Source: Botryllus schlosseri (lineage: Eukaryota). Taken from it: 64,000 bases of DNA. The notes beneath the pieces were generated by a model. The model ran no database searches and was not told where the DNA came from. It saw nothing but the letters and a program-made list of their open reading frames with translations. Position numbers and translations under genes: made by a program. Positions 59,101 through 62,100 of this stretch are shown here, piece by piece. Position 1 is the first letter of the stretch. Every line of letters begins with the position of its first letter. Location: positions 36,642,001 through 36,706,000 of the forward strand of contig CM119371.1 in NCBI GenBank assembly GCA_051294905.1, given 5' to 3'.

Positions 59101-62100
59101 CTGTATCATTCTATTATTTATTTGTCTGCTAAGATCCATCGTCTCTTCGTGTAACCGGGATGAAACTGTCGCAACGACGGCGATCGTGGATATTATAGCG
59201 AATACCAGACATATCAGTTCTGCCAGGAACCTTTTACGCCTTCTACGCGTACCCCGATGTGCGGTATTACTTGATGCCAATTCACCTTTAATTTCTATTG
59301 GACCCCCTGGAAAGCGTGGTCGGTTTAGCTCCGGATCAAAATGAACATGGTCCCAAAAGGCTGCCTTCAAAATGGGTCCTCCTACAGGGTCGCGGCACAA
59401 ATCCTGGTTATGTGATATTCTATTTTTACATGCTTCATCCGATGCAGTAAGAGAGGGGAAGAATTTCCACATAGGCCTGGGAAAAGGTACCCATGTTGAT
59501 GTAGATGCCTTAAACCTAGTCGGCACACCATCAAAAAGGTTATTCCACCTCATGCCCTGATTGCCACGATTAGCATACACACTGTGATCCAGATTTGGAA
59601 AAGACGGTTGTATCCATTTTACTCTGGGAGGAAAATTTGTCGTTGGTAGATCACCCCATAGAGTGGTATTCATTCCTGGCCAGAAGTTGCACGAATGGGC
59701 TATTACACGACCCCTTGGCCATAAGTGCTCAAACCAGTCCTGATTAATCCATCCCCCCTGAGCCCGGCATGGTATCAATGGAGTGCGCACATACGGCACG
59801 TTACTTACTTTAGTCATTACTATTTCTTGGATGATTATATCTGCCTTATTTGGTTCCAGGGCAGAGATAACTCCTCTAAAATCACACCTTGTACAGATTC
59901 CCAATATGACCCCTTTCTCCCTATAGGAGTACAACTGTTGCCAATAGTCGCCCCGGTAGGCTCTTTTTTGTATTAGATGCCAGCATTGTGTAAAACTATT
60001 GCTACTGGCATTATACTTATTCAATTCATTTATTTCGGCTCTGTCCCGGTCTCCCATAGGCTCTTGACGGCATGATGCTTCAATAGCTGAATAACTTTCG
60101 AATAGCCTCATCATAATTAATTTAAATTTGGTCAGAGCAAACATAGAGTAATTCTTGCCACGGTCATGAAACGACATGTATTGGTCCCCACTCCAGAACC
60201 AACGAATCCTATAATACCCTATTGGACGCACGAACATGTTCGTTTGTTTAAGGACATCATAGGAAATATTGGGCGTGATTTGGCCCAGGCGCCGCTGACA
60301 GAGACAGGTGCGTTCAAATTCTTGTACGCTTGTCCAATATCTTCCATGTGGAAACGCCATTTGTTGTAATGACAATCGCTCAGCCACTACGTAACCAAAT
60401 GACTTACTGTAAAACAACTCTGGCCGTCTATATACATGTTGCTCCGCCGTTTTATTGAAGATGCTCATCAAGTGATATTCCTCCCATTGCGTATCATTTA
60501 AAGTGATCCATTCTTCAGGCAGGGGTCCCCGTAGTTCGCCTAGCGTCCCCTGAGTGAAGGACCGTGCCCTACTTGTTACAGGATCTGCGAGTCCGTGCAT
60601 GCTTTTCGCCGCCGTATGCAGCACCAAATCAGACGTACAAATGATACCAACAAGGATAGACAGAGAATAAGGAAGGAGGTCCATGGTACATCTAGTGGTG
60701 GTTCTCGCCACGTCATAAACTAAATATAATCGCGCACTAGACCTAGACTACCGTCTGTAAAAACACAAAATAACAGATGTCGTCATTTTCGTCCTGGAAC
60801 CTTATAGCGGGGTTCACAATTGTGGTAATACAGGAGACCCATCAAATTTGTCAAAATTATACCGTGGATCATTGTGTATGGTGCGCAGGAGTGCCAAGAA
60901 TCGGTCAGTCTTTTGATGTTGACGTTTCCACAAAAACTCCCCTACGTAATCGGCCAAAAGGTGACGTGCTAAACCACGAGACCTATATAAATGATATTTA
61001 AGCTGTCCCCAGGCCCCCTCGATTTCATTAGTACAAAAAGCTGTCCGAGGGTCCTTAAACCACCGGGAGTGGTCCACTACACCGTGTATATAACCCTTCC
61101 CCCAGCTTTCTATGCCCCTGTAGGAAGGGTAGGCATCGGTTAAAATTGTGGACCCCTCTGCCACATTTTCTACTATGAACTTTCGAAATACTTGAGCAGT
61201 CCTGTCAGAAGTTATTTCGATGAACATTTCTCCGGTGGCTTTGTCTATTCCCCCGAACGCCCAAATGGCTTTAACGGCTGGTCCTTTATCTGAGGTAACC
61301 CGACGCTTAGCCAGATGCGTTTCATCAATAACCACACAACCGCCTTCATTTCCCAAACGTCGCTTATTCCTGTGAAATTCGGCCGTACAAAGCTTTCGCA
61401 ATCGGCCACACCAGGTGACCGTTGAACGTTGGCTAATCTCGGCTTCATGCGAAATTTGGGTTTGCAACGCGTCATGGGACCAAAAGTAGAACAATATTAA
61501 TAATTTGGGAAGTTCTACCTTGCTTCCCGCGAATATCGAGTGTTTCCGTATAGTCGCCGTAGTGTCACAGGGGTTGCATCGCCACCTAAATCCATCATCG
61601 CCTGTTGACGTAATTTCCTCTTTGATTATTTTTTTACATCGCTTGCATTTCATCCTTCGCACCAACAACCCGTGATTTCTCAGAAATATCACACAATCCC
61701 GTGTGTTTAGCAATGCACCCGATTCGACCAAACTCAACACATTGTATGTTCTTTTCCGCGTATCTGCGCAAGTAAATAATACGACATGTGGCGTCGATCA
61801 ACTCCCCATCGTCTTTAGCGGATCAAACCCCCCTTTTTCTTGGCGTTTCATGTGTACTGACTCTCTCCTATTTTAATCCCGTGTTATTCCTATGACAGGG
61901 TTATTTTTTTCACTTGTTCCTTACCAGACCTAATGATTTTTTCACCCTCATTTCAATGTACATGCAAAACACTTACTATCCTACTACACACCCATTTTAT
62001 GGTGCAACAACTATTGCCGCCTAGACCTCCGGGCACTTATTTCACAAGTACCCCTGAAATGATATATGTGACACTTATACATTGTCAAATTATTAAAAAT

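Follow-up and report, generated by a model that had tools for sequence, protein, structure and literature searches.

Reverse-transcribing elements are known to enter genomes by an integrase encoded in pol, by a tyrosine recombinase in the DIRS group or, as in caulimovirids, by no active route (PMC12440569). Among DNA transposons, Merlin elements have GG ends and 8-9 bp target-site duplications, and highly imperfect terminal inverted repeats (TIRs) have been reported for one Merlin family (PMC8101967). In the present study, we analysed a window of 64,000 nucleotides from Botryllus schlosseri (assembly GCA_051294905.1, contig CM119371.1, positions 36,642,001 to 36,706,000 of the forward strand), in which an earlier note, made from the letters alone, had pointed to a Merlin transposase next to an env gene as a candidate substitute for the integrase of a retroid virus. 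We found that the window carries an element of 40,347 bp (21706-62052), which unites a retroid module that has no integrase with a Merlin enzyme and ends of Merlin type, in an association that is long-lived and under selection. The elements of this family are bounded by imperfect TIRs starting with GG and by 8-bp (rarely 9-bp) duplications; they have no integrase and no pair of long terminal repeats (LTRs), and a tRNA primer site stands before gag. We consider it rather probable, taking all parts of the explanation together, that the transposase serves as the integrase substitute of reverse-transcribing, enveloped-type elements.

All long open reading frames (ORFs) of the element are on the minus strand and are read in the order transposase 1, env-like ORF, 1186-aa membrane protein, ORF-poor segment, cargo, leader, gag and pol. 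The transposases, ends and target sites are as follows.

60814..61797, minus strand: transposase 1, a Merlin/IS1595-type DDE enzyme with a four-Cys ribbon and D158-D221-E260, present in every full-size subfamily examined
61764..61765, minus strand: predicted phase-1 splice acceptor (pyrimidine tract, CAG) preceding the coding part of transposase 1
62030..62052, minus strand: TIR of the transposase end, starting with GG, identical in 22 of 29 located copies
21706..21728, plus strand: TIR of the pol end, matching the other end at 17/23 positions; 24 of 30 located copies have the identical sequence
61898..61920, minus strand: the TIR motif for a second time, internally and some 135 bp from the end, recognized by sequence and present in subfamilies B and C too
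21697..21705, no strand: left target-site duplication, 9 bp, direct repeat
62053..62061, no strand: right target-site duplication, 9 bp, direct repeat
16073..16081, no strand: empty paralogous site, where a further copy of the host repeat has a single target and lacks the insertion
36099..36977, minus strand: transposase 2, an accessory internal paralogue with D-D-E, not found near C, F, G, D and E copies

The frame of transposase 1 is open over 327 codons and matches the Pfam family PF12762 (DDE_Tnp_IS1595) above the cut-off (E 1.4e-10). In all 11 aligned rows, two free Merlins among them, residues C51, C54, C74, C77, D158, D221 and E260 do not vary, which bears out the zinc ribbon and D-D-E described in the earlier note; the IS1595 zinc-ribbon family itself gave no Pfam call in this protein. 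A structure model (predicted local distance difference test, pLDDT, 80) has an integrase-like RNase H core and matches retroviral integrase cores weakly (12-18% identity), which is expected of a DDE enzyme. The same note had called the gene intact; the frame is indeed open but has no start of its own, as positions 61798-61800 form an in-frame stop and the conserved N-terminal helix has no ATG ahead of it, so that an upstream exon is needed. The first in-frame ATG, at 61653, falls downstream of this helix and 399 bp inside the element end, and the coding part counted from the splice acceptor starts 289 bp inside it; the gene is close to the end, at these distances rather than at the roughly 310 bp first given. 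It is also tightly packed against the env-like ORF, with a measured gap of 129 bp instead of about 100 bp. A start at the upstream ATG 61851 was ruled out, since an in-frame stop follows (shown for A copies) and this ATG is not kept in subfamily C. A coding mini-exon within the terminal 290 bp is possible in A and is not conserved across subfamilies.

The ends were located through the duplication; a scan with 18-mers allowing 3 mismatches had missed the imperfect TIR. The 9-bp direct repeat CCTGAAATG flanks the element at 21697-21705 and 62053-62061. Among 17,044 pairs of 9-mer repeats tested in the window, three reach a 16/23 match between the ends; the pair of the element is the best of them (17/23), and the other two both lie inside a simple-repeat miniature inverted-repeat transposable element (MITE). 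The interrupted host repeat, which we take from its end motif to be of hAT type, has a paralogue near 16073 in which both flanks are joined at a single target copy, that is, an empty site. Across all subfamilies examined, perfect duplications were found at 44 of 53 end pairs (43 of them of 8 bp). In subfamily A, where one right end was counted twice, 22 of the 26 end pairs have a perfect 8-bp duplication, the window copy has one of 9 bp, one pair matches at 7/8 and two have none. Perfect duplications were also seen in C (6/6), D (3/3), C2 (2/2), F (2/2), E (4/5) and B (4/6, with one more at 7/8 and one not found). GG ends were present in A, B, C, C2, D, E and F, and Merlin-type ends together with duplications in seven of nine subfamilies examined (none found for B2 and G). 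The targets are varied 8-bp sequences, unlike the TTAA of piggyBac. The GG termini noticed earlier are hence confirmed; the 9-bp duplication holds for the window copy, which is an exception to the family norm of 8 bp, and the supposed 22-bp TIRs are a located pair of GG ends with an imperfect match of 17/23.

These results also bear on the idea that a Merlin element and an LTR-element remnant became neighbours by chance, or that the assembly is at fault. A repeat-rich region and an imperfect TIR would suit such an accident, but dozens of copies at different sites share the same ends with different duplications, the window holds an empty site, and element copies are present in independent DNA runs; the copy analysis refutes this explanation, which we regard as almost certainly wrong.

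Several copies deserve separate mention. One (G000:C3:21162740-21202764) is nested in another copy of the same family. Two subfamily C copies (L111 and L114, G000:C7:15.84-15.89 Mb) lie 49 kb apart in an array of a 177-bp satellite and, since they share the same left flank, one is probably a segmental duplicate. The pol ends at G000:C5:10285872 and 10299821 are separated by 13.9 kb and have in common a flank and one partner end, which means either a local duplication or an error in the assembly.

The genome was searched over 495.5 Mb in 219 contigs, and these searches score the best candidates only, so that all counts are lower bounds: at least 123 transposase, at least 66 pol and at least 55 env matches. 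For the linkage analysis we used 104 of the 123 transposase rows (19 short fragments were dropped), 65 of the 66 pol rows and 53 of the 55 env rows. Of 51 transposases with at least 55% identity, 50 have their own same-strand pol within 90 kb and the remaining one has only the pol of a neighbour; a matching env lies downstream in 48 of the 51, at a distance of 123-3446 bp. Pol is still present beside 8 of 10 transposases at 37-41% identity (subfamilies D and E). Conversely, 62 of 65 pol matches have a transposase within 90 kb, and two of the three that lack one are on contigs beyond the 16 large ones. The elements measure 20-70 kb, mostly 38-40 kb, and fall into nine diverged subfamilies with mostly open frames.

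The earlier note had conceded that its proposal would fail if the protein belonged to a short independent Merlin element elsewhere in the genome. Our genome search found no short transposase-only member at or above 55% identity, and such a source of transposase 1 was rejected: the 12 free Merlins, at 30-33% identity, all lack env and a same-strand pol, and at the 5 of 7 loci that yielded ends the TIRs are perfect (24/24) and of a sequence unlike that of the element. Four of these free Merlins (L154, L157, L158 and L160), with G-rich perfect TIRs, all sit at the 8-bp target TAATATTA, a common target that suggests target specificity in them.

It may still be asked whether transposase 2, or a free Merlin acting in trans, made the insertions, with the terminal gene as a passenger. 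Transposase 2 is 38% identical to transposase 1 and occurs in most A copies, in both C2 copies, in one B copy and in B2; in most A copies its frame is open and D-D-E is kept, whereas the terminal frame lacks a start codon of its own. Against this, the genome matches examined show no transposase 2 close to C, F, G, D or E copies, and perfect duplications occur with none found nearby in C (6/6), D (3/3), F (2/2), E (4/5) and most of B; for the free Merlins, the different and perfect TIRs argue likewise. Since the C, F, G, D and E copies, near which no transposase 2 was found, insert equally precisely, transposase 1 is the constant partner. We judge this alternative very unlikely as a whole, and within subfamily A transposase 2 is a minor rival for the role of insertion enzyme. 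The enzyme that cuts and joins both ends, and so makes the insertions, is very probably transposase 1.

Trees of 30 transposases and of 21 regions spanning reverse transcriptase (RT), RNase H and Tpt1 agree in their subfamily groups: D and E lie outermost, B2 and G come next, and the innermost are B, F, A, C and C2. Several inner forks stay open, and rooting was at the midpoint only. Identities of transposase and RT are correlated over 57 elements (Spearman 0.90, kin not being independent). Within A the value is 0.23, and this lack of correlation suggests exchange between A copies. In pairwise comparison with the window copy, the pairs not being independent, the ratio of nonsynonymous to synonymous substitution rates (dN/dS) was 0.13 for transposase (19 pairs), 0.10 for pol (8 pairs), 0.17 for the pol C-terminus (29 pairs, some partial) and 0.38 for the env N-terminus (19 pairs). 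Subfamily D was left out of the second alignment, as the row tried has a stop. These findings show that the transposase 1 lineage has long been carried together with the RT and under purifying selection. The dN/dS comparison across copies, which the earlier note had put forward as a check, thus came out in favour of its integrase-substitute proposal, as did the linkage and the Merlin-type ends and duplications.

The retroid module occupies the other end of the element and comprises the following parts.

21969..25424, minus strand: pol, with protease motif, RT, RNase H and C-terminal Tpt1/KptA (profile scan; protease by motif only)
25532..25538, minus strand: A AAA AAC, a slippery heptamer where gag and pol overlap, predicted from sequence to be a -1 frameshift site
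25517..28333, minus strand: gag-like ORF, 938 aa, with a CCHC knuckle at residues 773-787 (zf-CCHC E 5e-4, just below the cut-off)
26098..26106, minus strand: predicted phase-1 splice donor at gag codon 744, just ahead of the zinc knuckle (sequence comparison)
28342..28611, minus strand: small ORF of 89 aa, hydrophobic at its N-terminus, located between the primer site and gag; B, C, C2 and F have frames like it
28641..28659, minus strand: primer-binding site, a 19-nt complement of the 3' end of host tRNA-Ile(AAT) including CCA

Pol terminates in Tpt1 and contains no integrase, with no rve or H2C2 match in Pfam. Comparison of the element with itself gave four short internal repeats only and no paired LTRs, and no tyrosine recombinase family was found among the 21 window ORFs scanned, shorter ORFs being outside the scan. 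A 16-mer of the primer site has 20 exact hits in the genome, namely 10 tRNA-Ile genes and 10 element leaders adding CCA, and its reversed control has zero. At the matching place of the leader, C, C2, F and in part B have a site for tRNA-Thr(AGT), and two of four genome loci checked for it are tRNA-Thr genes; among the outer subfamilies, D has a similar site and E the Ile site. Three B leaders (L087, L089 and L091) show a third primer site, distinct from the Thr site that the remaining three B copies carry. The small ORF at 28342-28611 is conserved in five subfamilies, with a signal-anchor-like N-terminus.

These features have to be weighed against a giant cut-and-paste Merlin transposon that moves as DNA and carries gag, pol and env as cargo, with no need for reverse transcription. 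The large size, the host repeat fragments, the many polyadenylation-like motifs and the lack of an LTR pair would agree with it, and so would copies nested in copies and the multiplication of RT-less derivatives of 10-14 kb. These derivatives (G000:C2:31767402-31781274 and about 11 similar ones) keep both ends and lack RT and transposase; the Ile leader with its primer site is present in 11 of 12, about 4.1-4.4 kb inside the end, and gag parts are kept in those examined. The persistence of the primer site there speaks against a purely DNA-borne element, though four derivatives examined share one deletion and are not independent. Purifying selection on pol and env, gag frames that stay open across subfamilies down to 51% RT identity, a primer site that is kept while switching between real host tRNAs, and the lack of a short transposase-only member at 55% identity or above do so as well. 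We hold the giant transposon to be unlikely, and multiplication of the copies through RNA and tRNA-primed reverse transcription to be probable. Another reduced copy, of 8 kb (G000:C16:623892-631928), has the leader, primer site, pol, both ends and an 8-bp duplication, and is without transposase, env and cargo.

How the two modules may be linked is suggested by the gene order. In B and B2, the transposase starts 94-117 bp after pol and is followed by the ORF in env position; the order in B is 5' end, cargo, gag, pol, about 100 bp, transposase, env, the glycoprotein (membrane protein) and TIR, and the end motif closing B copies is the one that follows pol in A and C. The layouts of A/C and B suggest one gene circle opened at different points, although relocation of the block made up of transposase and env would account for them too. 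The phase-1 acceptor stands at the same position in A, B, B2, C, C2, F and G and at a nearby one in E. The gag donor is of phase 1 too; the site at codon 744 shows no difference between A, B, B2, C, C2 and F, and the comparison, which did not include G, has G|GTA preserved in D and E. Of the 34 residues that are invariant in 8 lineages, Gly744 alone has an identical codon throughout, and of the 40 invariant in 6 lineages it has the only DNA-invariant 4/6-fold codon; in these 6 lineages codons 743-745 are all identical. The pol background of such codons is 1/144 and 11/236. Besides codon 744, ten donor-like sites of gag and pol were inspected; that at codon 777 is conserved in C2 and in 6 of 7 B/B2 rows, but it was not listed as donor-like in C or F. 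Since pol has a slippery heptamer for a predicted frameshift, it does not need the codon 744 donor. A conserved donor and a phase-matched acceptor thus suggest a Gag-transposase fusion. In the layout of the window the acceptor comes first and the donor follows 35 kb further downstream, so that this splice needs joined ends.

In the mechanism that we propose, the replicating form would be a circle with both TIRs joined, in the order leader/primer site, gag, pol, transposase, env and cargo, which would put the transposase at the place of an integrase. Splicing from gag codon 744 to the transposase acceptor would yield a Gag-transposase fusion; this could be packaged with the genome, bringing the enzyme into the particle as Gag-Pol does for integrase. 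The transposase would then open the new DNA at the TIR junction and insert it as a circularly permuted provirus. We lean towards such a TIR-joined circle and spliced fusion as the link between the two modules.

A number of observations weigh against this reading or parts of it. The acceptor is unclear in D, and the donor was picked from 11 candidates, with a chance level of roughly 0.01-0.08, and could serve another acceptor. No spliced reads were found at the acceptor in two RNA runs, in which 70 and 280 reads mapped, mostly to host repeats, too few for a test of splicing. None of 59 located ends is head-to-tail, and DNA-read coverage reached one end only, with no circle junction. A weak search found no longer, fused transposase homologue. 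An RNA of 40 kb would pass 38 sense-strand AATAAA motifs and host repeat fragments and would be hard to make or copy whole. Linkage of RT and Merlin is seen in the Botryllus schlosseri genome only, RT and transposase gave no match in viral contigs, and no duplication was found in G (0/2) and B2 (0/1). For the env-like ORF, sequence searches gave no Pfam match and no useful PDB match, and its fold model (pLDDT 36) is unusable, so that an env fold is not established.

The RT clusters with five outside proteins, three of them with Pfam Tpt1 and none with integrase, apart from 26 other hits (Shimodaira-Hasegawa-like approximate likelihood ratio test 98, in a quick tree that has no labelled reference families and no labelled caulimovirid). 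Integrase-less relatives of the RT are present in metagenome assemblies; one close relative (L208, 47%) is on a 4.8-kb contig ending about 70 bp past pol. The best solved-structure match of the element's RT is the enzyme of cauliflower mosaic virus (8r0s, E 2e-23, the next being 2e-16), which is a ranking and not a phylogenetic placement. Long polyproteins among the RT hits turned out to be multi-element gene models with ordinary integrases.

The Tpt1/KptA RNA 2'-phosphotransferase domain (21969-22460), which ends pol at the place of an integrase, is kept in all subfamilies and in the outside relatives P0007, P0085 and P0086; for the combination of RT and Tpt1, nothing was found in a literature search. 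One outside RT-RNaseH-Tpt1 relative (P0086/P0234) has an extra C-terminal endonuclease/exonuclease/phosphatase domain, which may be another integration route or a joined gene model.

The same data could be read as an infectious, pararetrovirus-like virus with an episomal circle and with optional integration by the transposase, whose copies are repeated germline invasions more than spread within the genome. Such a virus is compatible with most of our explanation, and the env-like and second membrane-protein genes, the cargo of inhibitor of apoptosis (IAP), ubiquitin-conjugating enzyme (UBC) and leucine-rich-repeat (LRR) genes, the nine diverged subfamilies with mostly open frames, the structure match and the integrase-less metagenome relatives all agree with it. 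There is, though, no match in viral contigs, the two RNA runs are near silent, particle evidence is lacking, and a ranking of E-values is not phylogeny, so that we find this alternative quite improbable. Our own explanation, in its most extended form, would make the family an undescribed group of animal reverse-transcribing viruses of about 40 kb, with a circle, tRNA-primed RT with Tpt1, a packaged spliced Gag-Merlin fusion, permuted proviruses and an integration enzyme that in most subfamilies can be expressed only after end joining. This we put forward tentatively, as a possibility on the doubtful side of even.

The remaining features of the element are listed below; its cargo consists of the LRR protein, transposase 2, IAP, UBC and ORFs without an assigned family.

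31008..31463, minus strand: cargo, ubiquitin-conjugating enzyme in a single ORF (Pfam)
33252..34946, minus strand: cargo, inhibitor of apoptosis with 3 BIR and RING in a single ORF (Pfam)
37715..38755, minus strand: cargo, leucine-rich-repeat protein (Pfam)
44000..54500, no strand: ORF-poor segment with host repeat fragments, shared piecewise with other copies
54598..58158, minus strand: membrane protein of 1186 aa, with a stalk rich in Ser/Thr and a transmembrane segment at the C-terminus; without a family match
58168..60684, minus strand: env-like ORF with signal peptide, cleavage site and transmembrane segment by sequence

The env-like ORF has a basic cleavage site at 480-485, a hydrophobic segment at 484-512, long helices, a transmembrane segment at 767-803 and 11 N-glycan motifs. 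This anatomy fits the layout of a class I viral fusion protein, as judged from sequence features in view of the unusable fold model, and the structure-atlas lead to a class I fusogen is weak (score 0.90-0.91, low recognition). The 1186-aa membrane protein had neither a Pfam family match nor a structure-atlas match. In B2 (L086/L100, G000:C1:8.88 Mb) another ORF, unmatched by the window env, follows the transposase, and G copies are also without an env match, which suggests envelope exchange in both. Pieces of the ORF-poor segment were found in 7 other copies among the 8 candidates scored, mostly at 75-97% identity, and the segment therefore belongs to the element. Several short ORFs of 130-170 aa without a family match, alike by eye, lie at 29799-33105 and may represent one cargo family expanded by duplication; near 32135-32195 the coding strand has two poly(A)-like runs.

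If the proposed system is true, it would be a new route of genome entry for a reverse-transcribing element and would show the integrase to be an exchangeable module. Retroid replication combined with a TIR-type DNA transposase would blur the division between class I and class II elements. The element also offers a handle on how an integrase-less virus turns to integration, on the size limit of reverse-transcribed genomes and on the biochemistry of Merlin enzymes. Such questions can be tested directly, since young copies with defined ends and predicted splice sites are available by the dozen.

No published description of the element was found in the literature searched (Repbase, subscription papers and supplements being outside its scope), and the comparison was therefore made with described systems. 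With the Merlin superfamily, related to IS1595/IS1016, it shares the PF12762 domain with D-D-E, the GG termini and 8-9 bp duplications (PMC8101967); it differs in that 40 kb with gag, RT, primer site and env-like genes are conserved inside the ends instead of a transposase only, and in that its transposase has no start of its own and lies behind a predicted splice acceptor. Like LTR retrotransposons, Metaviridae and Retroviridae, it has gag, a pol with protease, RT and RNase H, and a primer site upstream of gag, but pol has no integrase, paired LTRs are lacking and the duplication is of 8-9 bp and not 3-6 bp. Envelope-bearing Ty3/gypsy elements have gag-pol-env with a tRNA primer site (PMC13524379), and the giant Burro elements exceed 30 kb and carry BIR domains as ours does (PMC6431247); both have the paired LTRs and pol integrase that are missing here. 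The DIRS group also combines an LTR-type RT with an unrelated joining enzyme in place of integrase (PMC12440569), which there is a tyrosine recombinase, unlike the TIR-type DDE transposase, 8-bp duplications, tRNA primer site and env-like gene of the present element. Caulimoviridae share RT and RNase H without integrase, as well as the best solved-structure match, and copy a circular DNA through RNA (PMC11363490), a circle being proposed only for our element; the latter has an animal host, an env-like gene, Tpt1, a size of about 40 kb, its own transposase and precise insertions with defined ends. Teratorn, the piggyBac-herpesvirus fusion of medaka, likewise holds a virus-like genome between transposon ends in tens of copies, with no stand-alone transposase form, with internal TIRs and with a proposed circular stage (PMC5601938, PMC10175614). 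The parallel with Teratorn drawn in the earlier note is fair, but the coupling seems tighter here, as the transposase takes the place of integrase in gene order and probably in packaging. Furthermore, the partner is reverse-transcribing and not a DNA virus, the enzyme is Merlin and not piggyBac, neither a TTAA target nor herpesvirus core genes are present, and our element shows circular permutation and a predicted Gag-transposase splice. As a whole, the element would operate in the manner of a retrovirus that has exchanged its integrase for a TIR transposase, and on one tested feature each it falls outside Merlin, LTR elements, DIRS, Caulimoviridae and Teratorn.

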